A stretch of 64,000 nucleotides of DNA from the NCBI GenBank assembly GCA_964570365.1, contig CAZMXT010000001.1, positions 73,440 through 137,439 of the forward strand, written 5' to 3'. The translations under genes were made by a program, and so were the position numbers. Source of the stretch: an uncultured Pseudomonadales bacterium. GTDB lineage: Bacteria > Patescibacteriota > Microgenomatia > UBA1400 > PJMF01. The notes beneath the pieces were generated by a model. It had not been told where the DNA came from and searched no databases. It worked only from the letters and a program-made list of their open reading frames with translations. Shown here one piece after another: positions 6,626 to 55,465 of this stretch. Within the stretch, counting starts at the first letter, position 1; the number at the start of each line of letters is the position of its first letter.

Positions 6626-6978
6626 AGCGTCTTAACCTTCAGTTAATTAGGTTTATCCATAATAATCAGGAGCAAATTATTGTACTGATAGCGATATACA
6701 GTGTCATGAATTTTTTCTCTTCATTACCTTACCTCAACTTGTTTTTTACGCCTTGGACCACAATTCTTTTTGAAGGAATAGTTGCCACGTTGCTTTTTGG
6801 AAAAAGAGTTCCTTTTATTTTCGCTTTTATTTTATTGGGATTTTCCCTGTATGCAACTGTTTTTTCCTTTTATAGCTCTGCAGAAGATGCCGGAGTCTTT
6901 ATCTATATTTTTTTAACTCTTGGCTTTTTGATTCAGGTTGTAGGCTATTTACGCTCACTCCCTCACAGATCTAAATGA
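6622..6978 (+). CDS. small membrane protein (118 aa), hypothetical
   Basis: An ATGA overlap couples it to the upstream giant ORF. It has 3-4 predicted TM helices and no recognisable motif. Confidence 0.4.
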   Translation: MKRLNLQLIRFIHNNQEQIIVLIAIYSVMNFFSSLPYLNLFFTPWTTILFEGIVATLLFGKRVPFIFAFILLGFSLYATVFSFYSSAEDAGVFIYIFLTLGFLIQVVGYLRSLPHRSK

Positions 6979-38190: not shown

Positions 38191-38390
38191 CACTTCGCCA
38201 ATCTCACCAGCCACTCAGTCACAAGCTAGTCATGCGGATATCTGTTACAATCATCATCATTCTGACTCTTCTAGTTGGCTACTACGAATCAACTTTATAT
38301 ATTTGGCAGACCAATCACCGAAGCGCGCTAGAAAAATTTAACGTCAATACAACCAAAGAATTACTTAAGTTAGAGGTGGAGACCAAATGA
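38187..38390 (+). CDS. small membrane protein (67 aa), hypothetical
   Basis: One TM helix ([14 protein letters not shown]). ATGA overlaps at both ends (38187-38190 and 38387-38390) suggest translational coupling between the LCP gene and rmlB. Confidence 0.35.
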
Positions 38391-39397
38391 AATTACTTGT
38401 GACAGGAGGCGCCGGCTTCATCGGTTCAAACTTTATTCACTATTGGCTCAGGAATCATCCCGATGATCAGGTAACGAACTTCGATAAGCTCACTTACGCG
38501 GGCAATCTTGAAAACTTAAGAGCAATTGAGAAAAACCCTGCCTACCACTTTATCCAGGGTGATATTACCTCTCCAGAACAAGTCGCTCAAGCTCTCAATA
38601 ATATTGATGTCGTGGTCCACTTTGCGGCCGAGACTCACGTAGACCGGTCAATTTTGGGACCTGGCATTTTTTTACAGACCAACGTGATTGGGACTCAAGT
38701 CCTGCTCGACGCTGTCCTAAAAGCAGGAATCCAGCGCTTTCATCACATCTCTACTGACGAAGTATTTGGTTCGCTAGAACTTGGTTCTCAAGAGAAATTC
38801 ACTGAACAGACCGCATATGATCCTCGCAGTCCTTATTCTGCCAGCAAAGCAGCCTCAGATCACTTAGTTCGTGCCTATGGAGAAACCTATGGCTTGCCCT
38901 ACACTATTACCAACTGCTCAAACAACTACGGCGAGTATCAATTCCCGGAGAAACTTTTTGGCTTAACTATCACCAACCTGATCGAGGGCAAGAAGGTTCT
39001 GGTGTATGGAGATGGTCTAAATGTGCGCGACTGGTTATATGTACAGGATCATTGCCGAGCCATTGAAGCCGTGCTGCTCAAAGGTCAGTTGCAAGAAACC
39101 TACACGGTCGGCGGCTTAAAAGATGATGTCAGTAACCTCGAAGTAGTCAAAATGATAATGAGAATTATGGGTCAGAACGAGCAAATGATTGAGTTCGTCA
39201 AGGACCGACCAGGTCATGATCGTCGCTATGCAGTAAATTGGGACAAGATCCATGATCAGCTCGGCTGGTCGCCTTCTGTAACTTTAGAAGAAGGTTTAGT
39301 CAAAACCATTGCTTGGTATCAAGAAAATGAAGCTTGGTGGAAACCCTTGAAAGAGAATACTCAAGCTTTTTTTGCGCAAAACTATAAAAAAGCCTAA
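38387..39397 (+). CDS. rfbB: dTDP-glucose 4,6-dehydratase
   Basis: It has [16 protein letters not shown]...[14 protein letters not shown]...[10 protein letters not shown]...ITNCSNNYG, the canonical RmlB-type extended SDR. Confidence 0.9.
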
Positions 39398-39415
39398 AAA
39401 CTTCTAAGGAAAAAT

Positions 39416-39949
39416 ATGAAGATTGCAGATACCTACGAGCATCAATTAACCACTCAAGCCTATGGCCAGAAACCATTCATTGAAGGTGTTGAGATCATTG
39501 AGCTGTCTTTTCATAATGACGATGGAGGCAATTTTGTCGAGCTTTTCCGCCTAGAAGAGGGCCGCATCGCGGGTGTCAAAGAGCCTTTTACAGCTAAACA
39601 AATTAGTGCATCTGTTTTAACTCCTGGTACGATTAAGGCCTTTCATATCCACAAAAAACAAAATGATTTATGGTATGTCTCACCCTACGACCGCTTGCTC
39701 GTGAACTTGCGTGACTTGCGAGAAGACTCTCCTACCTTCAATGCGCATGTACGATTGGTTCTGGGAGGCGGTAAGAACTCAATGCTTCGGATCCCTCATG
39801 GCGTAGCTCACGGCGCCGCCAATGCGTACGAACGCAACATGACACTTTTGTATGCCACCAGCGAACAATTTAACCCTTCTGAGCCTGACGAACATCGCCT
39901 ACCCTGGGATGCATTTGGCGCAGAAATCTGGGCGCTGGTAAAAGGTTGA
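39416..39949 (+). CDS. cupin-fold dTDP-sugar epimerase/isomerase (RmlC-like; could instead be a 3,4-ketoisomerase)
   Basis: A 177-aa protein. HNDDGGNFVELFRLEE aligns with the DERGFFMETY region of RmlC. A possible RBS (aaggaaaaat) lies upstream. Confidence 0.55.
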   Translation: MKIADTYEHQLTTQAYGQKPFIEGVEIIELSFHNDDGGNFVELFRLEEGRIAGVKEPFTAKQISASVLTPGTIKAFHIHKKQNDLWYVSPYDRLLVNLRDLREDSPTFNAHVRLVLGGGKNSMLRIPHGVAHGAANAYERNMTLLYATSEQFNPSEPDEHRLPWDAFGAEIWALVKG

Positions 39950-39950
39950 G

Positions 39951-40829
39951 ATGAAAACTTCAATTATCGGAACCGGTCTTTCTGGTTTAGTCGGCTCTAA
40001 ATTAGTTACAGATTTTGAAGCCTCCTACGACTTCCAAAACCTAGATGTCACTCACCCCACTAAACCAGTAGATATTACCAATTTGGAACAACTTCGACAG
40101 GTATTTACTGCTTCTGAGGCACCAGTGGTGGTTCATTTCGCTGCCTTTACTGACGTTAATAAAGCTTGGGAAGATCGAGACAATAAAGAAGGCATCGTCT
40201 ATAAAGTGAACGTGACCGGCACTGAAAATATTGCCCGGGCAGCCAAAGAAACGAATAAGCATTTAATCCATATTTCCACTGCCTACGTCTTTGATGGCAA
40301 GAAATCTGAGTCATATACAGAAGAAGATCAGATGAGCCCGATTGAGTGGTATGGCCAAACGAAATCCTGGGCCGAAGAGAAAGTGATGAAAGTAGGTGGC
40401 AGCTGGACAATTCTGCGAATTGATCAGCCTTTCCGCAGTGACTCCTTTCCGAAAAAAGATATTGCCCACCGAATTATTGCTGGGCTGCAAGACAAGACGC
40501 TGTATCCGTTATTTACTGATCATTTTTTTGGCCCTACCTACATTAATGACTTTGCGAAAGTGATTGATTGGGTGATTCGGACCAAGACTGCTGGACTCTT
40601 TCATGCTTCTTCTGGCGAGCGCTGGACTGATTATGATTTTGCCAGCCTCATTTCCCAAACACTGAACTTACCTGGAGAGCTTCAAGTAGGCGACTTAGAT
40701 GAGTATCTGAGAACTTTGACCAGACCATATCAGCGAAATACCGCTTTAAATACGACTAAACTTTTTGCAAAACTGGACTTCCAGCCAAAAAGTATTAAAC
40801 GAGCAATCGCAGAAATAACCGATTTTTAA
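39951..40829 (+). CDS. dTDP-4-dehydrorhamnose reductase-like (RmlD family)
   Basis: It has MKTSIIGTGLSGLVGSKL...HISTAYVFDG...YGQTKSWAE, matching the RmlD pattern STDYVFDG...YGKTK. Confidence 0.75.
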   Translation: MKTSIIGTGLSGLVGSKLVTDFEASYDFQNLDVTHPTKPVDITNLEQLRQVFTASEAPVVVHFAAFTDVNKAWEDRDNKEGIVYKVNVTGTENIARAAKETNKHLIHISTAYVFDGKKSESYTEEDQMSPIEWYGQTKSWAEEKVMKVGGSWTILRIDQPFRSDSFPKKDIAHRIIAGLQDKTLYPLFTDHFFGPTYINDFAKVIDWVIRTKTAGLFHASSGERWTDYDFASLISQTLNLPGELQVGDLDEYLRTLTRPYQRNTALNTTKLFAKLDFQPKSIKRAIAEITDF

Positions 40830-41506
40830 TTTTTCTCCTGCCGACTTTGAGATTTGCGCCACGCCTCAATGAGCTTGTGATGCCCTTGGAGCAAGATTTC
40901 CGGAACTTGCCAACCCTGGTACTCTACTGGTCGAGTGTATTGAGGATGTCCAAGAAAGCCCACTGCCGAGTGTGACTCATTCGTCGTGCTACTTTCATTT
41001 CCTAGCACTCCTTCGATGAGTCTGCTAATCGCGTCCACCATCACTAAAGCGGCAGGCTCACCGCCAGTCAACACGAAATCTCCTATCCGCAACTCTTCAT
41101 CTGCCAAGTGCCAAGCTACACGCTCATCGACGCCTTCATAGTGTCCACAAATAATCACCAGCTCATCCAGCTGTGACAACTCAACTGCTTTTTCTTGAGT
41201 AAAGGCCTGACCTTTGGCTGAAGTTAAGATTACTCGGGACTTACGTGCTGCTCGATTTGGGTCATGCTCTTTATCTTTGTACCCTAAATCATACAACGCT
41301 GCATGGATGGGTTCTACCTTCATTACCATCCCTGGACCGCCACCAAATGGTCGGTCATCAGTGGTTTGATGCTTATCGGTCGCAAAGTCACGGATATTAA
41401 TAAGCTGGTACTCATTGATCCCTTTTGCATCTGCGCGCTTCAACATTGACGTCGAAAAAGGAGAGCTAAAAAACTCTGGAAAAAGGGTCAGTACTTTAAA
41501 TCTCAT
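40826..41506 (-). CDS. trmD: tRNA (guanine37-N1)-methyltransferase
   Basis: It has MRFKVLTLFPEFF...RPFGGGPGMVMKVEPI...ICGHYEGVDERV...GDFVLTGGEPAALVMVDAI, a classic SPOUT TrmD. Confidence 0.9.
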   Translation of the reverse strand: MRFKVLTLFPEFFSSPFSTSMLKRADAKGINEYQLINIRDFATDKHQTTDDRPFGGGPGMVMKVEPIHAALYDLGYKDKEHDPNRAARKSRVILTSAKGQAFTQEKAVELSQLDELVIICGHYEGVDERVAWHLADEELRIGDFVLTGGEPAALVMVDAISRLIEGVLGNESSTTNESHSAVGFLGHPQYTRPVEYQGWQVPEILLQGHHKLIEAWRKSQSRQEKN

Positions 41507-41557
41507 GACAGAATTATACTCGCCCTGCTATACTCTACCAATTAGCGTCTTAGACTT
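41507..41557. promoter_or_regulatory. divergent promoter region between trmD (-) and the UDP-sugar dehydrogenase gene (+)
   Basis: A 51-bp AT-rich spacer containing TATACT-like -10 hexamers (gaattatactcgccctgctatactct). Confidence 0.35.
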
Positions 41558-42850
41558 ATGAATATTTGCATCATTGGTACTGGTTTTGTAGGAGTTGTAG
41601 CGGCTGCTGTGTATGCCTCACTTGGGCATACTGTGATTGGATTGGATGTCGATTTGGCCAAAATTGAGAAGTTGCGTCAGGGAATCGTGCCTTTTTTTGA
41701 ACCTCAGTTAAAAGAGTTACTGATTGAGCAACAAAGCTTGGGTAAACTAAGCTTCACCACTGAGTATAAAGTGGCTATTTCCAACTCTGAAATTGTGATT
41801 ATTGCCGTAGGAACTCCTTCTGCTCCTGACGGTCAAGCCGATTTAAAGTATGTGGTTGCTTCGGCAGAATCATTAGCACCTTTTCTGAAAGAAAAAGCCA
41901 TCGTCATCATCAAGTCTACGGTTCCACCCGGCACATTGCCTAAAATAGAAGATGTAATTCGCCGGAAGACACAGGTAAAGTTTTTTACTGCTTCACTGCC
42001 TGAATTCTTGAAAGAAGGCAGCGCTGTGCATGACACCCTTAATCCAGATCGAATCGTGATTGGTGCAACCGACCCTTTTGTTTTTGCAACACTGGAAGCT
42101 CTGCACGCTCCATTTGAAGCCCATATCGTTAAAGTTCGACCTGAGTCTGCTCAAATGGCCAAGTATGCTGCCAATGCTTACCTAGCTACTAGAATTACCT
42201 TTATTAATCAAATTGCTGATTTGTGCGAAAAGAATGGAGCTGACATTCAGGATGTGATCGAGGCCATTGGCTATGACAAAAGAATTGGCAAACATTATTG
42301 GTATCCTGGATTTGGCTATGGTGGCTCCTGTTTTCCCAAAGATGTCAAAGAGCTAGCTGCCTACTCACGTGCCATAAATGAAGAGCATAATCTCTTGAAT
42401 AAAATTAATGAACTGAATGAGCAACGAGTAGCTAAACTGCTGGATTCATACAAAGATAGAATTGGTGGTTGGCAAGGCAAAAAAGTGGCTGTTCTCGGCC
42501 TGTCTTTCAAACCAAATACTGATGACATGCGTGAGGCCCCCAGCACTAGAGTTATTCCTTATTTGCTAGAACACGGAGCTATGGTTACTGGATATGACCC
42601 AAAAACCGTTGAGGTTGCGCCCCACTTCATTCCCGCCAATGAGCACTTGAGTTTCACCGAAGATCTCAATGCTGCAGTCGAAGGTACAGACGTGATTTTC
42701 AGCTTAATTGAGTGGCCAGAAATTACCACCTACGACTTTAGCTCGGCTAGAAATAAGGATAAAACACAGTGGTTTATTGATGCCCGCAATCAATTCTCGC
42801 CTGCCAGAGTCAGTGAGTGGGGTTTTGAGTACATTGGAATAGGAAGATAG
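41558..42850 (+). CDS. UDP-glucose/UDP-sugar 6-dehydrogenase
   Basis: It has MNICIIGTGFVGVV (NAD-binding) and GFGYGGSCFPKDVKEL (catalytic Cys), typical of the UDP-glucose/GDP-mannose dehydrogenase family. It could equally be a WbpA-like UDP-GlcNAc 6-dehydrogenase. Confidence 0.85.
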   Translation: MNICIIGTGFVGVVAAAVYASLGHTVIGLDVDLAKIEKLRQGIVPFFEPQLKELLIEQQSLGKLSFTTEYKVAISNSEIVIIAVGTPSAPDGQADLKYVVASAESLAPFLKEKAIVIIKSTVPPGTLPKIEDVIRRKTQVKFFTASLPEFLKEGSAVHDTLNPDRIVIGATDPFVFATLEALHAPFEAHIVKVRPESAQMAKYAANAYLATRITFINQIADLCEKNGADIQDVIEAIGYDKRIGKHYWYPGFGYGGSCFPKDVKELAAYSRAINEEHNLLNKINELNEQRVAKLLDSYKDRIGGWQGKKVAVLGLSFKPNTDDMREAPSTRVIPYLLEHGAMVTGYDPKTVEVAPHFIPANEHLSFTEDLNAAVEGTDVIFSLIEWPEITTYDFSSARNKDKTQWFIDARNQFSPARVSEWGFEYIGIGR

Positions 42851-42861
42851 AAATTGCGAAT

Positions 42862-43824
42862 ATGGCAAACCAGACTAAAATTTTAATTACTGGTGGAACG
42901 GGCTTTGCTGGCTCTCACTTGATAGCGGCGCTAAAAAAGAAGGAGTATCAAAATATTCATGTGACTCACTTTGCCTCAACCCAGAACGCGGAGCTAGGCA
43001 AAGAAGTCGTAGTCCATCAGCTTAACTTGACAGACAAATCGAGTGTGGCTGCTTTAATCAAAGAAGTTCAGCCGGAGCAGATATATCACCTGGCTTCGTT
43101 CGCAGCTGTAGGAAAAAGTTTCCAACAGGCTTCGATGATCCTCGAAAATAACATTACTTTGCAGTTGAATGTCCTTGAAGCCATGCGCGAGCACGCTCCT
43201 AAAGCTCGACTTTTATCAATTGGCAGCGCTGAAGAGTATGGTCTGGTCTCTACGGAGATTGCCAAAGCTCACCGTAAAATTAATGAAGAAACAGCCTTAA
43301 ATCCAGTCAATCCATATGCTGTTTCCAAAGTTGCTCAGGATTTGCTGGCAAACGCCTATTTTTTGTCATTTCAACTAGATATTGTCAGAGTCAGACCCTT
43401 CAATCACATTGGCGAAAATCAATCGCCTGATTTTGTCATCCCAGCTTTTGCTAGCCAGATTGTAAAGATTGAAAAAGACCCAGAAAGCAAGCTGAAAGTT
43501 GGCAATTTGGAGAGCATTCGTGACTTTACTGATGTCAAAGATATGGTTCAGGCCTATATTGTTTTGATGGAGAAAGGCAGAGCTGGAACTGTGTACAATA
43601 TTGGTAGTGGAAGGGGGGTAAGAATTAAAGAAGTGCTCGAGACACTGCTTCAATTGGCCAATCAACCCATTCAAGTGGAAGAAGATCCCTCTAGACTACG
43701 CCCTTCAGATGTACCCTACTTTGTAGCTGACATCACCAAGATTCGGGAGCTTGGCTGGGAGCCCAAGATTGAGTTATCACATACTTTAGAACGAGTACTA
43801 AATGAATGGAGATCCAAAGCATGA
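42862..43824 (+). CDS. NAD(P)-dependent 4-keto-6-deoxy sugar reductase/epimerase (Rmd/Fcl-like SDR)
   Basis: It has [14 protein letters not shown] and PYAVSK (YxxxK). It lies immediately upstream of gmd and is translationally coupled to it (ATGA at 43821-43824). Confidence 0.7.
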
Positions 43825-44795
43825 AAAAAGCGTTTATAACTGGGATAACCGGCCAAGATGGTTCGTACCTAGCTGAATCACTCTTAGAAAAGGGCTATCA
43901 AGTGTATGGCTTAAATCGCCGGACAAGCACCCAAAATTTTGAACGGATTCAATCAATTATTCACAACCCAAACCTGCAGTTGGTTTCTGGTGACTTACTC
44001 GATCAGCATTCCCTGACTGTCGCCTTGAAGGATATTCAACCTGATGAAGTGTACAACTTGGCTGCTCAGTCATTTGTTAAAACGAGTTGGGACCAACCAG
44101 TTCTGACTGGTGAGTTCACTGCTCTGGGGGTGACGCGAATGCTTGAAGCCGTGCGTTTTGCTTGCCCACAAGCTCGTTTCTACCAAGCTAGTTCTTCCGA
44201 GATGTTTGGTAAAGTTCAGGAGGTACCTCAAACCGAAGACACGCCTTTCTACCCTCGCTCGCCTTACGGCGTTGCGAAGGCATACGGACACTGGATTACA
44301 GTCAACTACCGCGAATCTTTTGATCTCTTTGCGTGCTCGGGCCTACTCTTTAATCATGAGTCTCCTCGCCGTGGCTTAGAGTTCGTAACTCGCAAAATTG
44401 CCAATGCCGTAGCTCGAGTGAAGTTAGGAAAACAACAGCATGTAGAACTGGGCAATATGGAAGCCAAGCGTGACTGGGGCTATGCCAAAGACTATGTTGA
44501 AGCCATGTGGTTAATGCTTCAACAAGATAAGCCTGAAGACTATGTCATTGCTACCGGAGAAACTCATTCTGTACAAGAATTTTTAGAGCTGTCATGTCAA
44601 GTGGCTGGGATTCAAGATTGGCAATCTATTTATAAACATAACCCTAGCTATGACCGACCAGCAGAAGTAGATCTCCTGATCGGAAACCCTTCAAAAGCCA
44701 AGCAAAAATTAGGTTGGAAACCCACCATTACCTTCTCACAACTAGTTGAGTTAATGGTTTTAGCTGAGCTTAAAATAGAAAGTGCTGCTCAATGA
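43821..44795 (+). CDS. gmd: GDP-mannose 4,6-dehydratase
   Basis: It has [36 protein letters not shown]...YNLAAQSFV...[21 protein letters not shown]...NHESPRRG, the canonical Gmd. Confidence 0.9.
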
Positions 44796-45964
44796 AGAAG
44801 GCCTTTGTCATCATTCCCACCTACAATGAGCGTGAGAACATCGCCAAAGTAATCCCTTTGCTACTAGAAGTGTTTAGTAAAGTAGCTGATTGGGACATGA
44901 ATATTTTGGTGGTAGATGATAATTCTCCAGATAGAACTTCTGAAGTGGTTCAAGAACTACAAAAAAAATCCAAAAATATCTTCTTACTCTTAAACCCTCA
45001 CAAGTCGGGTCTGGGCGGAGCCTACTTAAAAGCTATGGCCAAGGCTTTTGATGAACTCAATGCCGACGTGGTTTTTGAGTTTGATGCAGATCTATCTCAT
45101 GATCCAACCAAAATTCCCAATTTCCTTAAAAAAATTGATCAGGGGTATGACATGGTACTGGGTTCTCGCTATATTTCTGGTGGTGGCATACCAGAAAACT
45201 GGGGACTCCATCGAAAGCTTTTAAGCGTCATTGGAAACTTGAGTATTATGTTAGTCCTGACAGACTTCCGAATCAGAGACTGGACCGGTGGCTACCGCGC
45301 TATCACCCGCAAAGTCTATGAAGCAGTTCATCCCGAGCTGCACAGTGAGCGATTCACCGGCTACACTTTTCAGATTGGCTTTTTACACAAGGCAGTTAAA
45401 AAAGGATTTAGCATTACCGAAGTACCTTTTAAGTTTGTAGATCGAGAGGTGGGTGAATCCAAGCTTGGGATGGAGTATATTAAAAATACGCTGTTATACA
45501 TTTTTCGCGTTCGCACTAAAGAAATCCTAACTAATCGAATTTTTAAGTTTATCGTGACTGGTAGCGTGGGAGCTCTTGTTCAGCTCTTATCCCTGCAGTT
45601 CTGGCGCAAATCATTCCCATATGAAGCTGCGTATTTTATCTCCTTAGAGACTGCTATTCTCTCTAACTTTATCTTAAGTAACTTCTGGACCTTTGCTGAC
45701 CGGAAGCCCAAACTTAGTCAGTACCCTAGTAAATTCGCCCAGTTTAACTTTGCATCAGCTGGATCGATCGTTGTCCAATTAATTATTGCGACAGCTGGTA
45801 AAAATCTGATTGGTTTGCATAGTCTCCTTACTGTACCGTTCATTAACTTAGAGATTGATACTGGTCTGATTTATGCAGTGATTGGGATTCTGGTCGGCAT
45901 GTCCTGGAACTTCTTCGCCTATAGTCGTTTTATTTGGAAAAAGCCACCAACTAAGGGGTCTTAG
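44792..45964 (+). CDS. polyprenyl-phosphate sugar synthase (Ppm1/DPM1-like GT2) fused to a C-terminal GtrA-like membrane domain
   Basis: The N-terminus [12 protein letters not shown]...VVDDNSPD...[10 protein letters not shown]...GSRYI matches DPM1-like enzymes. The C-terminus [15 protein letters not shown]...NFWTFADRK is a GtrA-family 4-TM domain. Confidence 0.8.
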
Positions 45965-45981
45965 TCTAGAGTTAACCTTAT

Positions 45982-47523
45982 ATGCTCGGTTTTCCCACTC
46001 TTTCTTCCATAAAACAGCGGATCAAAAAAATGAGTGTGATTGAGTGGATTTTAGTGGTGTTGTTGCTCGGGGGAGGCTTTTTACGTTTGTGGAACTTTCG
46101 CAATACTTTGGAGTTTCTCGGTGATCAAGGTCGTGACGTAATCGTCGCCAGTCGTATCTTTAGAGACCATGACCTTGTTTTGATTGGACCGGTCACCAGT
46201 ACAGGAGACATGTATCTGGGTCCCCTGTACTACTACTTCATGGTTCCATTTCTGTTTCTTAGTTTCCCCAATCCCATTGGACCAGCCTACGCAGTTGCAG
46301 CCCTTTCTATTCTGACTATCTTCCTGATGTACCAGCTAGGGAAGGAAATCGTCGGCCAAAAAGCGGCCATACTTGGGGCATTCTTTTTTGCGTTTTCGAG
46401 TGTCGCGGTCAGGTTTGCCCGCTTTAGTTGGAACCCTAATCCTGCGCCTTTACTCTCAATCATTTTTATCTGGGCATTGTGTAGAGCGCGCCTGAAAAGC
46501 CATTGGTACTTTGTACTGGCTGCTGCCTGCATTGCCATCTTAATCCAACTTCACTACGTAGCTTTATTGACCGTGCCAATGGCAGGTCTGGTGTGGCTAG
46601 CAGAGGCATTTAAACTGCGTCAGAAAGCAAGTATGGCGAAAAGATTCCTTGCTGCCACTCTAGTCTCACTGCTCCTGTTTGTGGCTTCATTGGCACCTTT
46701 AATTGCCTTTGACATTCGACACGATTACTTGAACTTTAACTCTTTAAAGTCCTTTATTGCTGACAGCCAGGACCCGCTGGAAGCCCAATCTATCAGCGAA
46801 AAGATTGCTACCACCCTCAAAGAGACACATGGCAGAAGTTTGCACATCTTCTTTGAAGTCTCCATTGGTAAACAAAGAACCCTAAATACTGTACTACTCA
46901 TCGGTGTCTTAGCAGCTCTAGTCATCATGTTAACTAAAAAGAAGAATGAGTGGAGAGATGGCCTCAGGTTACTTTTTCTTATCTACGTCGTGAGTGTTTT
47001 GGGTTTGTCTTTCTATCGCGGTTCTGTCTTTGACCACTATATTTCCTTCTTATTTCCCGCCACTTTCCTCATCTTTGGCAGTGTCCTAACCTGGATTAGT
47101 CAACATAAACTTGGAAAGCTGCTTGCAATCATTTTGATTGGAATTTTCCTTGGGTGGAATATTCCGCGCTACCCTTTGCGCACTCTGGGCTGGACAGTAG
47201 ATGAAATGCAGCAAACCAGCCAGACAGTGCTAGATCGAGTGAAACCAGGAGAAAAATATAACGTAATTTTACTTTCAGAATCAAAGGATATTTACGGTCA
47301 GAATTATCAGTACTTTCTACATGCTTCTGACAAACCGCCAGTACGACTTGAACAACTAGGAGAGGCCAGTAAATTATTTATAATTGATGAGCAACGACTG
47401 CCGATTGATGTAACCCAAATGCCAATTTATGAAATTGTCGTATTTCCCAATAAGAAGCCGACTGAAGTGTATACTATACAAGACGGTCCCCGTATTACAG
47501 TTCTGAAGAAAGAAGATGACTAA
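45982..47523 (+). CDS. polytopic membrane protein, GT-C candidate (GRD-motif family, paralog of 11292)
   Basis: See 11292; the two share the GDQGRD...LIGPVTS block. It is 513 aa with a hydrophilic C-terminal domain of about 150 aa. Confidence 0.55.
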   Translation: MLGFPTLSSIKQRIKKMSVIEWILVVLLLGGGFLRLWNFRNTLEFLGDQGRDVIVASRIFRDHDLVLIGPVTSTGDMYLGPLYYYFMVPFLFLSFPNPIGPAYAVAALSILTIFLMYQLGKEIVGQKAAILGAFFFAFSSVAVRFARFSWNPNPAPLLSIIFIWALCRARLKSHWYFVLAAACIAILIQLHYVALLTVPMAGLVWLAEAFKLRQKASMAKRFLAATLVSLLLFVASLAPLIAFDIRHDYLNFNSLKSFIADSQDPLEAQSISEKIATTLKETHGRSLHIFFEVSIGKQRTLNTVLLIGVLAALVIMLTKKKNEWRDGLRLLFLIYVVSVLGLSFYRGSVFDHYISFLFPATFLIFGSVLTWISQHKLGKLLAIILIGIFLGWNIPRYPLRTLGWTVDEMQQTSQTVLDRVKPGEKYNVILLSESKDIYGQNYQYFLHASDKPPVRLEQLGEASKLFIIDEQRLPIDVTQMPIYEIVVFPNKKPTEVYTIQDGPRITVLKKEDD

Positions 47524-47532
47524 TTCTTTTGT

Positions 47533-48309
47533 ATGGCTAACTATCGCCTTCACCTCTCAATTGTAATTCCTTCTTATAATGAAGCCAAAAATATTCATCG
47601 AGGAGTTCTTACATCTCTGGCGGAACATTTGTCAAAACTAGAAGGCTCATGGGAAGTTATTTTTAGTGACGATGGCTCAAACGATGAAACAGTTCCCTTA
47701 ATTCGCGAGTTTATTCAAAAGTATTCCAAGCAATTTCCTGACCAGCTTTCCATCTTAGAGAACATTCACGCTGGCAAGGGACCAACCGTCCAAGCTGGAA
47801 TGTTAAAGGCTCAAGGAAAGTATCGTCTTTTTACCGACTTTGACCAATCTACACCCCTAAATGAAGTCAAGAAGTTACTCAAGCATGCTCAGGAAAATTA
47901 CCCAGTAGTGATTGGTTCTCGAGAGATTGAAGGCGCCCATCGAGACCGCGAACCCCTACATCGTCACTTAATGGGACGGGGCTTCAACTTGCTCGTCCAG
48001 ATATTAGCCATACCCGGCATCTATGACACCCAGTGTGGCTTTAAACTTTTCAGCGCAGAAGCTACTGAGCAACTTTTTAGTAAGTTGTATGTGTACGGCA
48101 AACGATCTGCTCGTCAAGATGCTTTCACTGGTGCTTTTGACGTCGAGGCCCTTTACCTAGCAAAAAAATATGGCTTCAAAATTAAAGAAGTCCCTATTCA
48201 GTGGGAGCACAATGAAACCGATCGAGTTAGTCCTGTGAGAGACTCAGTCAGGATGCTCCGAGATATCTTCAGAATCAGGATTGCAGATCTAAATGGAAAG
48301 TATACATAA
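47533..48309 (+). CDS. GT2 polyprenyl-phosphate glycosyltransferase (DPM1/GtrB-like)
   Basis: It has LSIVIPSYNEAKNI...VIFSDDGSNDET...FTDFDQSTP...QCGFKLFS. The DxD and QxGFK arrangement is typical of Dol-P/undecaprenyl-P hexose synthases. Confidence 0.75.
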   Translation: MANYRLHLSIVIPSYNEAKNIHRGVLTSLAEHLSKLEGSWEVIFSDDGSNDETVPLIREFIQKYSKQFPDQLSILENIHAGKGPTVQAGMLKAQGKYRLFTDFDQSTPLNEVKKLLKHAQENYPVVIGSREIEGAHRDREPLHRHLMGRGFNLLVQILAIPGIYDTQCGFKLFSAEATEQLFSKLYVYGKRSARQDAFTGAFDVEALYLAKKYGFKIKEVPIQWEHNETDRVSPVRDSVRMLRDIFRIRIADLNGKYT

Positions 48310-48311
48310 AG

Positions 48312-49532
48312 ATGCGCAGCTCTGCCTTTCTACTTGCCTGTAGTTTTTACTTTATACTCCTTACTTTTTACGCCGTTGCTTCTTTTGCGCTAACCGATCC
48401 AAATTTGGTGCTGACGAGCTGGCCACCCTTCTGGAACTTCCAACAGTGGATGTGGCAAACTTTCTTTCTCAATCGCCAACTTTTAGCTAGCACCTTTGGC
48501 GCTTTATTCATCGGCATGTTTGCTTCCTACTTATGCGTTGTACGAGCAGTTCAGCAACAAAGTCCCAAGCAAATTTTCTTGATCAGCTTGGTATTCGCTT
48601 TTCCATTACTCCTTTCCTATAACGCTTTATCGCACGACGTTTTCAATTATATTTTTAATGCCAAGATGGCTGTAATCTATCACGCCAACCCACATCAGCA
48701 CGTCGCCCTTGATTTTGCTCAAGATACCTGGACACGTTTCATGCATAACACACACACACCCGCACCGTATGGGTATGGCTGGACTCTATTTTCGCTCATA
48801 CCATTTCTGCTAGGAGTGGGTAAATTTACTTTCACTTGGCTTCTTTTCCGACTTACTAGCGTACTTAGCTTAGCTGTGCTTTTCTTCTCGCTCCAGCAAT
48901 TTCTAAAACAGGACACAAAGTCAGGAAAAAAATTTGCACTTCTTTTTTTTAATCCTTTGCTTTTAATCGAGGTCGTTAGCAACTCCCACAATGACCTCTG
49001 GATGATTGCGCCAGCTATCCTCGGGTTTAGTCTCGTTTTGAGATTAAAAAACAAACTATTTAATACACTTTTCGACCAGATCCTTATTTCCGCCGGACTG
49101 CTTCTCTTTTCTATCTCAGTCAAGTTAGCCACAGTGACTTTACTCCCATTTTGGGCTATCCTTGTCGCAGTTCGGGCGGTTCCTATGAACAACTGGGTTG
49201 GGCGCCCTCAGGACTTCTTAAAAAGGAACCTTCCACTGCTCTGTTCGCTCTGTCTATTCTTACTGCTCTTAACCCCTAGATCTCAACAATTCCATCCTTG
49301 GTACTTGGTTTGGATTTTGGCTTGGCTACCCCTGATTAAACAAAGATTTTGGACGTATGGGGTAGTGATTTTATCCGCCAGCTCTTTACTTCGTTATTTA
49401 CCCTGGATCTGGGCAGGAGGCTTTTCCCCTCTGATTATTCAGCAACAAAAAATGATCACTTGGATCCCACTACTGGTCTTTTCCGTAAGCTGGCTAACTC
49501 TGAGATTCATCAAACCCCGGCTTCAGCTATAA
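48312..49532 (+). CDS. polytopic membrane protein, hypothetical (possible GT-C)
   Basis: A 406-aa protein, hydrophobic throughout, with loop motif LSHDVFNYIFNAKMAVIYHANPH. It is coupled to the upstream DPM1-like gene by a 2-bp gap. Confidence 0.5.
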   Translation: MRSSAFLLACSFYFILLTFYAVASFALTDPNLVLTSWPPFWNFQQWMWQTFFLNRQLLASTFGALFIGMFASYLCVVRAVQQQSPKQIFLISLVFAFPLLLSYNALSHDVFNYIFNAKMAVIYHANPHQHVALDFAQDTWTRFMHNTHTPAPYGYGWTLFSLIPFLLGVGKFTFTWLLFRLTSVLSLAVLFFSLQQFLKQDTKSGKKFALLFFNPLLLIEVVSNSHNDLWMIAPAILGFSLVLRLKNKLFNTLFDQILISAGLLLFSISVKLATVTLLPFWAILVAVRAVPMNNWVGRPQDFLKRNLPLLCSLCLFLLLLTPRSQQFHPWYLVWILAWLPLIKQRFWTYGVVILSASSLLRYLPWIWAGGFSPLIIQQQKMITWIPLLVFSVSWLTLRFIKPRLQL

Positions 49533-49539
49533 TCAAATA

Positions 49540-51093
49540 GTGAAAACTCGTTACCTCTACCTCGGAATCATTTTAACTTACCTGCTTTCTCACTTATGGA
49601 ATCTGAGTGTATTTCCAGTTTTTTCTGATGAAGCTATCTATATTCGCTGGTCGCAATTGATACTAGACGACTGGAAACAGTACTTATTTTTTGCCATGAA
49701 TGACGGCAAAACACCATTATTTATTTGGCTACTTACTCCCTTACAGTTGTTTTTTAGCAATCAATTGGTAGCCGGCAGAATTTTGTCTGTAGCAGTTGGG
49801 CTTGCTCAAGTTCTCGTCATGGGCCAGCTAGTGAAGCAACTTGGTGGGCGACGGCAGACTCAATTTCTGGCCATGCTCTTTTCTACTCTGCTACCATTTT
49901 GGTTTTTTTCTCACCGCGTTGCTTTGATGGACGGTTTATTGACTCTCTTTCTTTCCTTAGCATTTTGGTCGGGGCTGAGGTTGGTTCAAGGGTCACAGAA
50001 AAATCTGCGGCACGCTGCCCCACTAATTACCTTGACTGGCATCTTTACTGGCTTAGCAGTTTGGAGCAAGCTCCCAGCCATTTTCTTTGTCGGTGCATTA
50101 CCACTATTGAGCTCACTGCCTGCCCAGCTAAGTCGGGAGGAAAGGGTCCGTAGATTCTTGTACTTAGGAGTGGCAGCAGGAATCGGTATTTTTATGTTGT
50201 TGCTACTGCGAGTTAGTCCCGCTTTTGGTCAACTGTTCAGTCGTAGTCAAGACTTTACCTACTCTCTAAGTGAAATCATGGTTGAAGGTAAATGGACCCA
50301 GACCTTGCCCAGCTTCCCTACTTACTTTGCATACTTTGGTCAGTATCTCACCTGGCCGGTAGTAGTCTTAAGTTTGGCTGGACTTTTTATGGATACAACC
50401 AGGAGGAAAGTAGCCATATTACTGCTATTTGCTGTAGCCTTCTGTCTGCCCATTACCTTGCTTGGAAAAGTCGTGTACCCTCGCTACTTATTGCCTGGAG
50501 CTATTTTCTTTACCTTGGCCAGCGTACTGACACTCCAAGCAATGCACGATCAAATATTTGTCCTAAAAAAAGCAAAGTCTATGCTTTATCAAGTGATGAT
50601 TGCATTGCTGTTTGCAGCTATTCTGGGAAATATTTTTACTGCTTCTGCCAGCTTTACTGCAGCCTTTACTTTTGCTCCCAATGCAACCCCGTTTGTCTCC
50701 GCTGACCGTCAACAGTACTTGGAGGAATGGTCATCAGGACACGGTATTTCCGAAGTAGCAGCAATGATTAAAGAGGCAGCCAAGACAAGAAAAATTGCAG
50801 TGGCCACAGAAGGCAGATTCGGCACTTTGCCTGACGGCCTACTGCTTTTCTTTCATCGTACGAATACCGAAAACATTTATATTGAAGGCACTGGTCAGTA
50901 CCCAGTCAAGACCTTGCCTGAATTCTTTGTCCAACGAGCTAAATTAGCCAACCAATCATGGTTAATAGTCAACTCCCATCGGATGGAGCTTCCCCTAGAC
51001 GAGTCCAAGTTAATTCGAGAATTTTGCCGACCCAACAACGCGCCCTGTCTTCAGGTCTGGGATGTAACGGATGAGGTGAAAAAGGCCCCTTAG
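49540..51093 (+). CDS. GT-C glycosyltransferase, PMT/ArnT-like
   Basis: Loop 1 reads VFPVFSDEAIYIRWSQLILDDW...DGKTPLFIW, a DE motif in the correct position. It is 517 aa with a C-terminal soluble domain. Confidence 0.65.
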   Translation: MKTRYLYLGIILTYLLSHLWNLSVFPVFSDEAIYIRWSQLILDDWKQYLFFAMNDGKTPLFIWLLTPLQLFFSNQLVAGRILSVAVGLAQVLVMGQLVKQLGGRRQTQFLAMLFSTLLPFWFFSHRVALMDGLLTLFLSLAFWSGLRLVQGSQKNLRHAAPLITLTGIFTGLAVWSKLPAIFFVGALPLLSSLPAQLSREERVRRFLYLGVAAGIGIFMLLLLRVSPAFGQLFSRSQDFTYSLSEIMVEGKWTQTLPSFPTYFAYFGQYLTWPVVVLSLAGLFMDTTRRKVAILLLFAVAFCLPITLLGKVVYPRYLLPGAIFFTLASVLTLQAMHDQIFVLKKAKSMLYQVMIALLFAAILGNIFTASASFTAAFTFAPNATPFVSADRQQYLEEWSSGHGISEVAAMIKEAAKTRKIAVATEGRFGTLPDGLLLFFHRTNTENIYIEGTGQYPVKTLPEFFVQRAKLANQSWLIVNSHRMELPLDESKLIREFCRPNNAPCLQVWDVTDEVKKAP

Positions 51094-51776
51094 GTAAGCT
51101 CATGGAGTGTTAATTCTTTAACGATGTACCCAAATCCCCGAATGGTTTGAATGATTGTGTTGTGGGAACCTAGCAGGATCCTGATCCGTCGCATGTAGAC
51201 GTCAATCGTGGTAAACGAAGGAGTATCTGCTTCCCCCCAAATATTATCGATGATCATTTCTCGGTTGATGACACAATTTTTATGACGAACTAAAAAAGCT
51301 AAAAGCTCAAACTCCCGCTTCCGAAGCTGGACAGTTCTCTGACCTACATGCACTAATCCAGCCCTGGGAAACAAACTCAGCTGGCCAGCTCTTAAAGGAC
51401 CGCTATCTAGATTCTTGGTTCTAGCTAACAGCTTCTGCACACGCAGTAGTAACTCAACACTAGAGAAGGGCTTCGCCAAGTAATCGTCTGCTCCTTTTTG
51501 TAGGCCAAAAATGCGATCAGGGATAGAGCACTTCTCGGAGAGAATCAAAATTGGAGAGGTTGATAGCGAATGGTGTAGATACTCAGCAATTTCTACCCCG
51601 TCACCGTCTGGCAATCGGCGATCGAGCATCACCAAGCTGGGACGATGAGTCGCCAAAAAAGTATATCCTTCCTCCAAGTTGGCTGCCGTAAAAACCCTAT
51701 ACTCGGACTTGGGTAATAGCTGCTGAATGGAGTGGGTCAACTGGGTATCATCTTCCACTACCAAAATATTGTGCAT
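51090..51776 (-). CDS. OmpR/PhoB-family response regulator (receiver plus winged-helix DNA-binding domain)
   Basis: The receiver domain reads ILVVEDDTQL...VMLDRRLPDGDG...KPFS. The C-terminal winged-helix domain reads TVQLRKREFELLAFL...TIRGFGYIV. No histidine kinase is adjacent. Confidence 0.9.
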   Translation of the reverse strand: MHNILVVEDDTQLTHSIQQLLPKSEYRVFTAANLEEGYTFLATHRPSLVMLDRRLPDGDGVEIAEYLHHSLSTSPILILSEKCSIPDRIFGLQKGADDYLAKPFSSVELLLRVQKLLARTKNLDSGPLRAGQLSLFPRAGLVHVGQRTVQLRKREFELLAFLVRHKNCVINREMIIDNIWGEADTPSFTTIDVYMRRIRILLGSHNTIIQTIRGFGYIVKELTLHELT

Positions 51777-52072: not shown

Positions 52073-52666
52073 ATGAGCAGAGAAAAAAAGAATCCCGTTG
52101 TGCAGGGTGACCTAGCAGAAACAGCTCGTACCCAACCACTTCCCTTTATTTTAATGAACGGGGAGTGGCAGGATGGCACTCCTTGGCAGTTTGTGGCCAC
52201 TCCATCTTCAGAAAACTTTCCCAACCCTAGTCTGTGTACAGCTGCCTTCTGTGTGGTGACTTATCAAGAAAAACTCGTCGTGGTTGAGCACACCAAACGA
52301 GGGATCGAGCTCCCCGGCGGGCATGTTGATCCAGATGAAGAAATTCCCCGGACCGTTGAGCGGGAGGTACTAGAAGAATCTGGCGCCAGAGTCCTCCAGC
52401 CCACCTTTTTTGGCTACAAGAAAGTCTCACCAGCGAATCCAATTCCTCATCGAGATGATCAAAGCAAATTTTATCCTTTTCCTCATTCCTTTGTTCCCTA
52501 CTACTTCTGCGAAGCTGCAGAGATGCTCAATGTGCCGTTGGCAGCGGACGTGAAGGCTGTCCACTTAGTTACCCTCCAGGAAGCTCGCCAGCTCTTCACG
52601 CCAGGACAGAATCATCACGTAATCATTCAACACTTACTCCAACAAGGAGTCATCAGACTGCAATGA
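52073..52666 (+). CDS. NUDIX hydrolase
   Basis: The Nudix box GGHVDPDEEIPRTVEREVLEESG is present. It is the first gene of the aminosugar operon. Confidence 0.85.
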   Translation: MSREKKNPVVQGDLAETARTQPLPFILMNGEWQDGTPWQFVATPSSENFPNPSLCTAAFCVVTYQEKLVVVEHTKRGIELPGGHVDPDEEIPRTVEREVLEESGARVLQPTFFGYKKVSPANPIPHRDDQSKFYPFPHSFVPYYFCEAAEMLNVPLAADVKAVHLVTLQEARQLFTPGQNHHVIIQHLLQQGVIRLQ

Positions 52667-53643
52667 TGAAGCCAACTCCACCAATCACCCGACCTATTTC
52701 TATTGGCTTGATTGGCTATGGAAAGCAAGGTAGTCAGCACTTTGAGAGCCTACTTCCACTGATCAAACAGCATCGAATCCAGATCTGCGGTATTTGTGAC
52801 CTACTCCAGCCTGGAACATTTCAAAATATCCCCTTTTTTCAGGATTACCGTGATCTGTTGGCAGAGCAAAAACCAGATGCGGTCATTATCACCACTCCTA
52901 ACTACTTACACCAAGAGATCGGCATGGCAGCGCTCAGCGCAGGTTGTGACATCATTAAGGAAAAGCCATTGGCAACTTCGTATGCCGAGGGCAAAGAGCT
53001 GATTCAACGAGCAGAAACGCTGGACCGATTGGTCATTACTGCCCAGCAGCGTTTCTACTCTCCATTTTTTCAAAAGGTAAAGCAGCTCATTCCTGAGCTG
53101 GGAGAAATCTTGGACTTCTCTTATCACTTCACCGTCAATGATGAAACCAATAGCTGGTACTGGGAACTGGCAAAAGCCGGCGGAGGTAGCTGGTTAAATA
53201 TGGGCTGGCACGGCATTACGATTTTGCAGTGGCTGCTTGGTCCAGTCACCGATGTCCAACTGACCTGGAACACAGGCGGCAAACGCAACTGGGTGTATGA
53301 CACTGACCACAGCTCATTCGCCCGCCTTACTATTAACCAGAACACTACCGGTCATGTGTTCTTCAGCTGTATCTACCCAAAAGAAGAGTCGCTCAAGATT
53401 GTTGGCAATAATGGCACAATTCTCCTGACGCGGGAAAAGTTGAAGTTTATTACTTCTACCAAGGTTCGCGTTTACCGCTCCTTTCAACCCACTACCACTG
53501 CCTATGTCCGCCAGTATCAGCGCATCTTTCAACAGTTGGGGACGCGAGAGCACCGCATGCAGGCAGATCTTCAAACGTTGGCCGTTATCTCACAGGGAAT
53601 CGAGTCCCTCAATAAAGGAGGCTTCCATGCCAAAAAAAACTGA
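52663..53643 (+). CDS. Gfo/Idh/MocA-family NAD(P)-dependent sugar oxidoreductase (WbpB/WlbA-like candidate)
   Basis: It has ISIGLIGYGKQGSQH (Rossmann) and ITTPNYLHQEIGMAAL...EKPLA, a typical Gfo/Idh/MocA N-domain. Confidence 0.8.
   Translation: MMKPTPPITRPISIGLIGYGKQGSQHFESLLPLIKQHRIQICGICDLLQPGTFQNIPFFQDYRDLLAEQKPDAVIITTPNYLHQEIGMAALSAGCDIIKEKPLATSYAEGKELIQRAETLDRLVITAQQRFYSPFFQKVKQLIPELGEILDFSYHFTVNDETNSWYWELAKAGGGSWLNMGWHGITILQWLLGPVTDVQLTWNTGGKRNWVYDTDHSSFARLTINQNTTGHVFFSCIYPKEESLKIVGNNGTILLTREKLKFITSTKVRVYRSFQPTTTAYVRQYQRIFQQLGTREHRMQADLQTLAVISQGIESLNKGGFHAKKN
53612..53620 (+). promoter_or_regulatory. Shine-Dalgarno sequence (AAAGGAGG) for the aminotransferase gene
   Basis: A perfect AAGGAGG core lies 7 nt upstream of the ATG at 53627, inside the 3' end of the preceding gene. 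Confidence 0.5.
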
Positions 53644-55464: not shown

Positions 55465-55465
55465 G

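Follow-up and report, generated by a model that had tools for sequence, protein, structure and literature searches.

A conserved patescibacterial operon predicted to encode two polyprenyl-phosphate glycosyltransferases, one of them fused to a GtrA-like domain

Introduction

Which lipid-linked sugars might feed the many GT-C-like membrane proteins encoded by an uncultured member of the Patescibacteria, and which enzymes would make them? This question is raised by a stretch of 64,000 nucleotides from contig CAZMXT010000001.1 (GenBank assembly GCA_964570365.1, positions 73,440 to 137,439), referred to below in its full length as the window, in which the genes for two glycosyltransferases of family GT2, here named A and B, are embedded in a cassette of eight genes. 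The names attached to homologous proteins and to related genomes indicate that the bacterium is of the Pacebacteria/Microgenomates type. The Patescibacteria, or Candidate Phyla Radiation (CPR), are uncultured, ultra-small and often epibiotic bacteria whose surface chemistry is essentially unknown. A preliminary description of this DNA had proposed that A and B supply two different lipid-linked monosaccharides, for example those of mannose (Man) and glucose (Glc), to neighboring GT-C enzymes.

Following up this proposal, we consider it rather probable that A and B are inverting GT2 synthases of lipid-linked monosaccharides that serve the GT-Cs, with a GDP-linked sugar of mannose configuration as the donor of A and a UDP-sugar as that of B. 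This kind of system is known already; its member in the Patescibacteria is uncharacterised.

Results

Protein A combines a DPMS-like catalytic domain with a GtrA-like membrane domain

The open reading frames (ORFs) that had been reported to begin at positions 44792 and 47533 are borne out by the ORF list and by the genes that JGI has called, with identical extents, on three metagenome contigs from the source (390 residues for A and 258 for B; Table 1). Residues 6-177 of A match the Pfam family Glycos_transf_2 (PF00535; E 5.5e-29). Its residues 252-382 (nucleotides 45545-45937) match GtrA_DPMS_TM (PF04138; E 5.2e-16), with 59.3 bits against a cutoff of 26.1 and with profile positions 1-117 of 117 covered. 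The catalytic domain of protein A spans about residues 1-226; it is followed by an interface helix (227-247) and then by the four-helix membrane domain (252-382). Its AlphaFold model, built from 17 homologues (predicted local distance difference test [pLDDT] score 86), contains a GT-A core, two long helices at the positions of interface helices and four long C-terminal helices (249-271, 277-300, 308-339 and 357-381). The view of A as a DPM1-like GT2 enzyme with a C-terminal GtrA-like domain of four transmembrane (TM) helices is hence confirmed by both Pfam matches, that to PF04138 being above its cutoff, and by the four helices of the model.

The closest solved relative of A by sequence is PfDPMS, the dolichyl-phosphate mannose synthase of Pyrococcus furiosus (5mlz; E 1.9e-42 across residues 3-361), followed by ArnC (about 1e-14) and GtrB (4e-10); no other family represented in the PDB reached an E-value of 0.001 in this phmmer search. 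Comparison of folds gave the same picture, as the Foldseek ranks 1-25 are occupied exclusively by PfDPMS (393 aligned columns, 30% identity), ArnC and GtrB.

Residue roles established for PfDPMS (PMC5526996; Gandini et al.) were mapped onto A through a pairwise alignment with 5mlz. Tyr10 and Glu12, which are involved in donor binding and in locking the acceptor loop, correspond to Y11 and E13 of A, and the guanine-binding Asp39 to D43. Asp89 and Asp91 of the DAD motif are represented by D98 and D100, the mannose-contacting His94 by H103, the dolichyl-phosphate (Dol-P) phosphate site formed by Arg117, Arg131 and Ser135 by R126, R141 and S145, and Arg202 and Lys208 of the acceptor loop by R218 and K224. 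All of these residues, from Y11 through K224, are invariant across the 17 homologues, and the residues that bind the metal, the donor and the Dol-P phosphate are conserved among bona fide DPMSs (PMC5526996). The DXD motif, the lipid-phosphate site, the acceptor loop and the closest folds collectively support the assignment of A to the polyprenyl-phosphate class of GT2 enzymes, with its catalytic activity being predicted. Furthermore, the nucleotide-binding stretch DDNSPDRT of A resembles DDDSPDRT of PfDPMS, and the common motif DD.SPD.T is a weak hint that A might use a GDP-sugar.

Homologues of A are plentiful: 7221 of the 8000 candidates that were scored match at E < 1e-10. The best 120 are all GT2-GtrA fusions of 382-402 residues with 64-75% identity to A, and the search with B turned out likewise. 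At E < 1e-30, A is matched by 903 clusters formed at 50% identity; many of them are fusions, with identities as low as about 31%, and many others are catalytic-only forms of 235-270 residues. Given the Pfam E-values and these thousands of homologues, the observation is far beyond chance. The source databases name the homologues of A 'dolichol-phosphate mannosyltransferase'.

Protein B is probably a second GT2 enzyme of the same kind

Protein B also matches Glycos_transf_2 (PF00535; E 2.8e-22), and its closest solved relatives by sequence are PfDPMS (3e-10), ArnC (1e-9) and GtrB (2e-8). Its AlphaFold model (pLDDT 85.5) finds only these three families at the Foldseek ranks 1-16 (E 1e-15 to 1e-12, TM-scores 0.64-0.74), with ArnC as the top match. 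The characterization of B as a second DPM1/GtrB-like GT2 protein is therefore sustained, and neither A nor B groups with GT2 enzymes that act without a lipid carrier, since both group with DPMS, ArnC and GtrB.

The DXD motif (D102-F-D104) is kept in B, as are R130 (within GSR) and R144, the equivalents of PfDPMS Arg117 and Arg131; these residues are invariant in 20 homologues. Amphipathic helices at residues 142-158 and 234-253, with hydrophobic moments of 0.38 and 0.48, occupy the positions of the interface helices. B and A share 29% identity over 255 residues, the C-terminal (interface-)helix region included, and they are the only pair in the window with similarity across the whole catalytic domain; the other GT2 proteins of the window lack it. 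Single-sequence phmmer searches of the window with the domains of A and with B, which are of limited sensitivity, revealed neither a stand-alone GtrA protein nor a further polyprenyl-phosphate GT2. The stretch DDGSNDET of B resembles DDGSSD of ArnC, and this DDGS.D pattern might, as a weak hint, point to the use of a UDP-sugar. Homologues of B carry the name 'dolichyl-phosphate beta-glucosyltransferase', which was given automatically by the JGI and NCBI pipelines.

The genes for A and B belong to a translationally coupled operon

The cassette comprises, in this order, ugd, rmd, gmd, the gene for A, a GT-C gene, the gene for B, an MptA/B-like GT-C gene and a PMT-like GT-C gene (Table 1). Its first three members encode enzymes of nucleotide-sugar synthesis. 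Three UDPG_MGDP_dh Pfam domains (E 5e-58, 5e-34 and 1e-24) identify Ugd, together with the NCBIfam model for nucleotide-sugar dehydrogenases TIGR03026 (417 bits, cutoff 190). Residues 6-317 of Rmd match a GDP-6-deoxy-D-lyxo-4-hexulose reductase (2pk3; E 2.3e-65), and a GDP-6-deoxy-D-mannose reductase follows (6x3b; E 4.5e-44). Gmd scores 433.5 bits with TIGR01472, above the cutoff of 415, and is matched by solved GDP-mannose 4,6-dehydratases at E 1e-125; its ORF opens at 43806, but translation is likely to begin with the ATG at 43821, in agreement with the JGI call.

The TGA stop codon of rmd overlaps the ATG of gmd (ATGA, 43821-43824), gmd and the gene for A are joined by an ATGA overlap of the same kind (44792-44795), and the remaining junctions of the cassette are gaps of 2-17 bp. 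The cassette is hence a translationally coupled operon. The preliminary description had made no use of the coupling of A to rmd and gmd, which stand for GDP-D-rhamnose (GDP-D-Rha), and to ugd, which stands for UDP-glucuronate (UDP-GlcA).

Table 1. Predicted features of the cassette and its borders, with positions in the window
Feature	Position	Strand	Remarks
Sigma-70-like promoter match, possible operon promoter	41505..41534	+	ATGACA, 18-nt spacer, TG-TATACT; trmD-ugd gap
ugd, UDP-glucose 6-dehydrogenase (makes UDP-glucuronate)	41558..42850	+	First cassette gene; Pfam and TIGR03026
rmd, Rmd-type reductase	42862..43824	+	Best solved relative 2pk3
gmd, GDP-mannose 4,6-dehydratase	43821..44795	+	324 residues in JGI call; TIGR01472
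A, DPM1/DPMS-type polyprenyl-phosphate glycosyltransferase (predicted)	44792..45964	+	390 residues; GT2 and fused GtrA/DPMS domain
GT-C-like polytopic protein, candidate user of the A product	45982..47523	+	513 residues; 9 TM-like segments; PMT_2 E 2.3e-5
B, putative polyprenyl-phosphate glycosyltransferase-like GT2	47533..48309	+	258 residues; GT2 domain only
MptA/MptB-family-like GT-C protein	48312..49532	+	406 residues; 8 TM-like segments; PF26314, TIGR03459
PMT/ArnT-like GT-C protein	49540..51093	+	517 residues; 8 TM-like segments; N-terminal loop SDE ('FSDEAIY')
OmpR-type response regulator, convergent	51090..51776	-	Response_reg and Trans_reg_C; conserved neighbor and possible member of the cassette

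As had been pointed out, each of the two synthase genes is followed by one for a polytopic membrane protein, and the two proteins, with 9 and 8 TM-like segments, are GT-C-like. Orthologues of the first match both PMT_2 and PMT. The second, whose gene begins 2 bp past the stop codon of B, is covered along with its orthologues by precomputed matches to MptA_B_family (PF26314), and it matches TIGR03459 at E 3e-9 (36 bits, cutoff 439). The third GT-C protein of the cassette is recognized by Pfam PMT (PF02366; E 2.7e-9, 37.4 bits, cutoff 22.7) and shows a weak match to ArnT.

The promoter match falls within the 51 bp that separate trmD, encoded on the minus strand, from ugd. It agrees with the consensus at 10 of 12 positions, with an extended -10 TG in addition; promoter-like sites are no more numerous in the region than shuffling would predict, and the match is thus weak evidence. 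No terminator-like sites were found on the plus strand between 44.2 and 51 kb, which likewise is weak evidence. Most of the related loci have an OmpR-type regulator gene at the 3' border of the cassette, and no histidine kinase gene adjoins it in the window. On the far side of trmD lie the gene for a LytR-CpsA-Psr (LCP) ligase and then rmlB-, rmlC- and rmlD-like genes (37120-40829), without an rmlA between them; this arrangement upstream of trmD is found in about half of the related loci.

Conservation of the cassette and its variants

Gene order was scored in 81 related patescibacterial loci, taken from the species representatives of a genome collection and from three metagenome contigs, in which the A proteins have 54-75% identity to A; the denominators given below are the scorable loci. 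gmd lies directly upstream of the gene for A in 75 of 77 loci, the order rmd-gmd-A is present in 73/75, and the complete series ugd-rmd-gmd-A in 69/71. On the other side, A is succeeded by the first GT-C gene in 72 of 76 loci, the median distance being 0 bp, and B comes next in 70/75. The MptA/B-like gene stands behind B in 66 of the 70 loci and is itself succeeded by the PMT-like gene in 51 of 63. At the scored junctions, the median distance between genes varies between an overlap of 19 bp and a gap of 13 bp, and loci that lack the rml/LCP genes upstream still have the complete block. The likeness to GtrA/GtrB/GtrC modules seen earlier is well reflected in this arrangement, in which the fused synthase-GtrA protein has a GT-C-like protein, and B the MptA/B-like protein, as its next neighbor at the frequencies just given.

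A more distant sample consisted of metagenome loci centered on fused homologues with 40-50% identity to A. In two of them (L090, at 6002-6973, and L094), a single short-chain dehydrogenase/reductase (SDR), to which Rmd and Gmd of the window are equally similar, is encoded before A and matches 2pk3 at E 1.6e-88; in L090, where it stands in place of the rmd-gmd pair, it shares about 40% identity with Rmd and with Gmd. Locus L103 contains a similar Rmd/Gmd-like SDR gene, then one for a UDP-glucuronate decarboxylase (UXS; 3615-4577; E 1.6e-101 with human UXS1, 2b69) and then A, and a UXS gene directly precedes A also in L086 (7592-8578), L095 (5639-6607) and L099 (3051-4046). The insertion of UXS and the single SDR in these relatives suggest different nucleotide sugars per clade.

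A second type of fused protein is encoded directly beside trmD, with no nucleotide-sugar genes, in L087, L093, L097, L100, L106 and L143. Most of these proteins carry the PfDPMS-like motifs D.DFQHPP, TDPTTG and F.YK. Those of L093 (1499-2854), L097 (6959-8164), L100 (5586-6767) and L106 (6878-8179) possess D(A/G)DFQHPP, a Lys at the position of PfDPMS Lys178 (F.YK[LV]), and Asn at the positions of both Asn248 and Asn277, so that these four bacterial fusions are close to the motif definition of type-III DPMSs discussed below.

A further homologue of A, with 59% identity, is encoded in a high-GC metagenome-assembled genome labelled Actinomycetota (L047, 6863-11215). It adjoins a 984-residue DUF2079 membrane protein; the other cassette genes, gmd and rmd among them, are absent within 10 kb. 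The gene could have been acquired horizontally, or the enzyme could be put to another use there. The link of A with GDP-6-deoxyhexose genes consequently reaches beyond the close clade and is not universal.

In the gmd/rmd-linked family of A proteins, the motif RDWTGG is invariant, with W164 (nucleotides 45281-45283) following the conserved Asp163; most other DPM1-like or fused homologues have Cys, Ala, Ser or Pro in place of this Trp. As a marker for the gmd/rmd-linked type, the 'DWT' sequence was rejected: the Trp is present in the Actinomycetota-labelled homologue, which has no gmd/rmd neighbor, and its value is also undercut by one short DPM1-like protein that carries it (L158).

Other genes of the window

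At least 13 polytopic proteins of 400-580 residues with 7-13 TM-like segments are encoded at 6991-37096 and 45982-51093. Examples of this GT-C-like array are found at 6991-8550, 18865-20478, 20462-22177, 23466-25118, 25125-26855, 32270-33994 and 35399-37096. In many members the N-terminal loop contains WDE, RDE, VDE or SDE, and weak matches to PMT_2, PIG-V and PTPS_related are seen. The array is unusually dense for a small-genome bacterium. Elsewhere in the window, numerous GT2 and GT4 enzymes are encoded, along with two Wzx-like flippases. Two ORFs at 1391-3049 (552 residues) and 3083-6625 (1180 residues), with 8-9 TM-like segments each, have no Pfam match at E 0.001.

An SDR encoded on the minus strand at 12737-13657 is closest to UDP-glucose 4-epimerases and also matches 6zl6 (E 1e-47 to 1e-43), an entry deposited merely as 'Epimerase domain-containing protein' that is presumably a UDP-glucuronate 4-epimerase. 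Judged by these matches, the SDR could convert the product of Ugd into UDP-galacturonate (UDP-GalA). The region 52073-56227 encodes a NUDIX protein, a GFO/IDH/MocA oxidoreductase, a DegT-type aminotransferase, an AAA_28 protein and a formyltransferase, a set of genes that resembles a route to an N-formylated amino sugar. We considered this block as an Arn-like extension of the cassette and rejected it, as it is absent from this position in the three relatives checked.

Discussion

A model for the function of A and B

From what we observed of the domains, conserved residues and folds of the two proteins and of the conservation of their operon, we infer the following course of events, including the catalytic activity of A and B, their lipid acceptor, the flipping of their products, the pairing of donors with GT-Cs, the sugars and the glycans that receive them. 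A and B would face the cytoplasm and, in a metal-dependent and inverting reaction, would each move one sugar from a nucleotide sugar onto polyprenyl phosphate, probably undecaprenyl phosphate (Und-P). In A, metal and diphosphate would be bound by D98 and D100 of the DAD motif, the phosphate of the lipid would be placed between the two interface helices by R126, R141 and S145, and the gating acceptor loop would contain R218 and K224. The fused four-helix GtrA-like domain would serve as an anchor and may help the product across the membrane, a flippase activity of the GtrA family and of PfDPMS being a proposal only (PMC12992685). B could be seated on the membrane by its amphipathic interface helices or, alternatively, be docked on the coupled MptA/B-like protein. 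Once flipped, the products would be donors for the three interleaved GT-C-type transferases, and possibly for other GT-C-like proteins of the window, which would glycosylate a surface protein, a wall polymer or a lipoglycan outside the membrane.

Several findings weigh against this view. Of the mannose contacts of PfDPMS (Asp89, His94, Arg117 and Lys178), A keeps the first three, and Lys178 is replaced by T192; moreover, the equivalent of Arg117 is also needed for phosphate binding. In B, the position of PfDPMS Ser135 is an invariant Gly (Gly148), and the acceptor loop reads W-E-H-N-E-T-D-R-V-S-P, as compared with F-V-D-R-x-x-G-E-S-K-L in DPMS-type enzymes. No NCBIfam model scores above its cutoff for B, the weak matches including EpsD, HpsE, PglI and GpgS-type proteins, and a single-sequence search of the window, limited in sensitivity, found no separate flippase for the product of B. 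With respect to the GT-C-like partners, the match of the first to PMT_2 (25.1 bits) is just below the cutoff of 26.1, and a sequence search of the PDB at E-values up to 1 found no solved relative for any of the three.

Which sugars would be transferred?

Homology makes a GDP-sugar of mannose configuration the most likely donor of A and a UDP-hexose that of B, and the mannose and glucose named in the preliminary description amount to this default, which is unproven. An attempt to read the donor from the active site of A was abandoned as it gave no discrimination, since the contacts have other grounds for being conserved or, as with T192, have been exchanged.

The cassette itself points to other sugars. 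If it were self-contained, the same mechanism would run on new lipid-linked donors: A would form polyprenyl-phosphate-D-rhamnose from the GDP-D-Rha supplied by Gmd and Rmd, B would form polyprenyl-phosphate-glucuronic acid from the UDP-GlcA supplied by Ugd, or -xylose (Xyl) from UDP-xylose where UXS is present, and the GT-Cs would add these sugars outside, so that a surface glycan of D-rhamnose and uronic acid is built or decorated beyond the membrane. The evidence for such a scheme is synteny. rmd and gmd are confidently identified and joined to A by ATGA overlaps, and the block unites three nucleotide-sugar enzymes, two synthase-like GT2s and three GT-Cs and encodes no further Leloir glycosyltransferase; GT4 and GT2 Leloir enzymes encoded elsewhere in the window could, however, consume GDP-D-Rha and UDP-GlcA. 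The block stays whole where the upstream rml/LCP genes are missing, yet rmlB, rmlC and rmlD also cluster nearby without their transferases, so that the neighborhood may be a mere sugar-supply island. Among the distant relatives, a GDP-mannose dehydratase/reductase-type SDR is encoded directly upstream of A in L088, L090, L091, L094, L095, L099 and L120, and ugd accompanies A and B even in a rearranged locus (L105) with the order A-B-ugd. Against these cases stand the fused A-type proteins that have no gmd/rmd neighbor, namely the six encoded beside trmD and the Actinomycetota-labelled one, and the trmD-adjacent fusions in particular, with their lack of nucleotide-sugar genes, take weight from the scheme.

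With regard to the enzymes, GDP-D-Rha differs from GDP-Man at C6 only, and PfDPMS tolerates other donors, with GDP-Glc supporting about a quarter of its activity (PMC5526996). No residue that would recognize or exclude O6 was identified in A, and the downstream GT-Cs resemble the mannose-using families MptA/B and PMT. In the literature, searches on D-rhamnose with Patescibacteria or with undecaprenyl phosphate and GT-C found no description of a polyprenyl-phosphate-D-rhamnose donor, and searches on GDP-6-deoxy-mannose as a DPMS substrate and on CPR glycosylation yielded nothing directly relevant; within these searches, neither of the two lipid-linked donors of the scheme came up. On balance, we judge it unlikely that the cassette is self-contained in this manner, and prefer the donors suggested by homology.

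Might B act on another acceptor?

B could also be a soluble GT2 enzyme for a different acceptor, such as a lipid-diphosphate-linked oligosaccharide, a precursor of a wall polymer or, as in the case of glucosyl-3-phosphoglycerate synthase, a small phosphorylated metabolite, in which case only A would supply a lipid-linked monosaccharide. The deviations at Ser135 and in the acceptor loop and the missing NCBIfam assignment fit such a role. So does the finding that a hydrophobicity scan detected no segment of B above the transmembrane threshold and hence no TM anchor of its own; a PfDPMS deprived of its entire TM domain nonetheless still localizes to the membrane and is fully active (PMC5526996), and B without a TM helix remains a plausible lipid-carrier enzyme for this reason. 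The ordinary GT2 enzymes WrtF and RmlT match the fold of B as well (E 1e-11 to 1e-10); they come after rank 16, and the best 16 fold matches and the best three sequence matches are all polyprenyl-phosphate glycosyltransferases. In view of these matches, of an alignment with A that runs through the C-terminal interface-helix region not common to the other GT2 proteins of the window, and of the place of the gene between two GT-C genes, with the 2-bp gap to the next one and an order kept in nearly all scorable loci, a soluble B seems quite improbable to us.

Significance

The function that we prefer for A and B, the synthesis of lipid-linked sugars for GT-Cs, implies that one large clade of Patescibacteria keeps a coupled operon for extracytoplasmic glycosylation, in the window beside more than 12 GT-C-like proteins. 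The operon and this array point to a layer of surface glycans or glycoproteins that could matter for the attachment to a host. A and B are the obvious biochemical entry points to this system because they are small and expressible, and because their substrates can be purchased or made enzymatically. Should GDP-D-Rha and UDP-GlcA prove to be the donors, the known set of polyprenyl-phosphate sugars would grow; with mannose and glucose, the pathway would be an ordinary and correctly annotated one. Beyond the preliminary description, our analysis adds the conserved operon of eight genes, its coupling to the synthesis of GDP-D-Rha and UDP-GlcA, and the finding that predicted fusions of the A type are common in bacteria.

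Comparison with known systems

The closest counterpart of A is PfDPMS (PDB 5mlz, 5mm0, 5mm1 and 9ep0), a 'type-III' DPMS that combines the same GT2 domain, two interface helices and four-helix GtrA-like domain in one polypeptide. The DAD motif, the site formed by Arg117, Arg131 and Ser135, the Arg and Lys of the acceptor loop and the guanine-binding Asp are all kept in A. In a MAFFT alignment of the family, in which the register of TM helix 4 is uncertain, Asn277 and the gating Phe338 align with N292 and F374, and Asn248 and Arg341 with Q264 and Y377. Motif 1, DADxQHPP in PfDPMS, reads DADLSHDP in A, with Gln93 exchanged for S102 and Pro-Pro for Asp-Pro, and this form is invariant in the close family; Phe177-Lys178 ('KIL') of PfDPMS becomes Y191-T192 within GYTFQI. 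S102 and Y191-T192 are variants that we take to be those of eukaryotic DPM1. In contrast to PfDPMS, A is a bacterial and presumably mesophilic protein (it stems from Patescibacteria metagenomes), its lipid is presumably a bacterial polyprenol instead of dolichol, and its gene is coupled to genes for GDP-D-Rha synthesis.

Type-III DPMSs have been defined by the motif 89-DADxQHPP-96 (x being Leu, Phe or Tyr), by Arg117 (SRY), Arg131, Ser135 and Lys178 (KIL), by a polar TM pocket formed by Asn248 and Asn277, and by the gating Phe338 (PMC12992685). A contains SRY, R141 and S145 and, by the family alignment, seems to match the TM pocket in part; since motif 1 and Lys178 are lacking, it is not a strict type-III DPMS. 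These enzymes were stated to occur only in archaea, chiefly in hyperthermophiles (PMC12992685, 2026). This statement is to be qualified, as predicted DPMS-GtrA fusions are widespread in bacteria.

In mycobacteria, the DPM1-type synthase Ppm1 feeds GT-Cs of the MptA, MptB and Pmt families, and the cassette encodes MptA/B- and PMT-like GT-Cs after B. The similarity of the GT-Cs is weak, as seen from the TIGR03459 score far below its cutoff, a Lnt-like Ppm2 domain is missing, and the products of the mycobacterial system, lipomannan and lipoarabinomannan (LM/LAM) and mannoproteins, are not expected in Patescibacteria. Catalytic subunits that lack TM helices and need a membrane partner are known from Ppm1/Ppm2 of M. 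smegmatis and from human DPM1/DPM3. Like B, the ALG5-type dolichyl-phosphate beta-glucosyltransferases of eukaryotes and archaea are GT2 enzymes with a DXD motif, and they use a UDP-sugar, as B may do; the corresponding name of the B homologues is an automatic one, and B differs from the ALG5 type by the lack of a TM anchor.

The Arn pathway, in which ArnC and ArnT act together with Ugd, ArnA and ArnB in the addition of aminoarabinose to lipid A, resembles the cassette as an operon for a tailoring process that starts with Ugd and employs a polyprenyl-phosphate GT2 and a GT-C. In the comparison of folds, ArnC ranks first for B and as the second family in the case of A, and it has the DDGS.D motif in common with B. 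However, the conserved cassette is without equivalents of ArnA, ArnB and ArnD, the two C-terminal TM helices of ArnC have no counterpart in B, and the NCBIfam ArnC scores (62 and 48 bits) are far below the cutoff of 529.

The same overall logic is seen in the GtrA-GtrB-Gtr(type) systems of Shigella and Salmonella phages, which glucosylate the O-antigen, and in the CsbB/GtcA/YfhO-type systems of Gram-positive bacteria. In such three-component systems, a GT2 enzyme makes an Und-P-linked sugar inside the cell, a member of the GtrA family is proposed to flip it, and on the outside a GT-C hands the sugar on (PMC11127046). Both A and B have GtrB among their best structural matches, with DPMS and ArnC being closer to the two proteins. 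In the cassette, A carries the GtrA module in one polypeptide with the synthase, B has no such module, and there are two synthases, three GT-Cs and genes for nucleotide-sugar synthesis. Our comparison thus supports the view that the system represents the three-component GtrA/GtrB/GT-C machinery for extracytoplasmic glycosylation in a fused and duplicated form.

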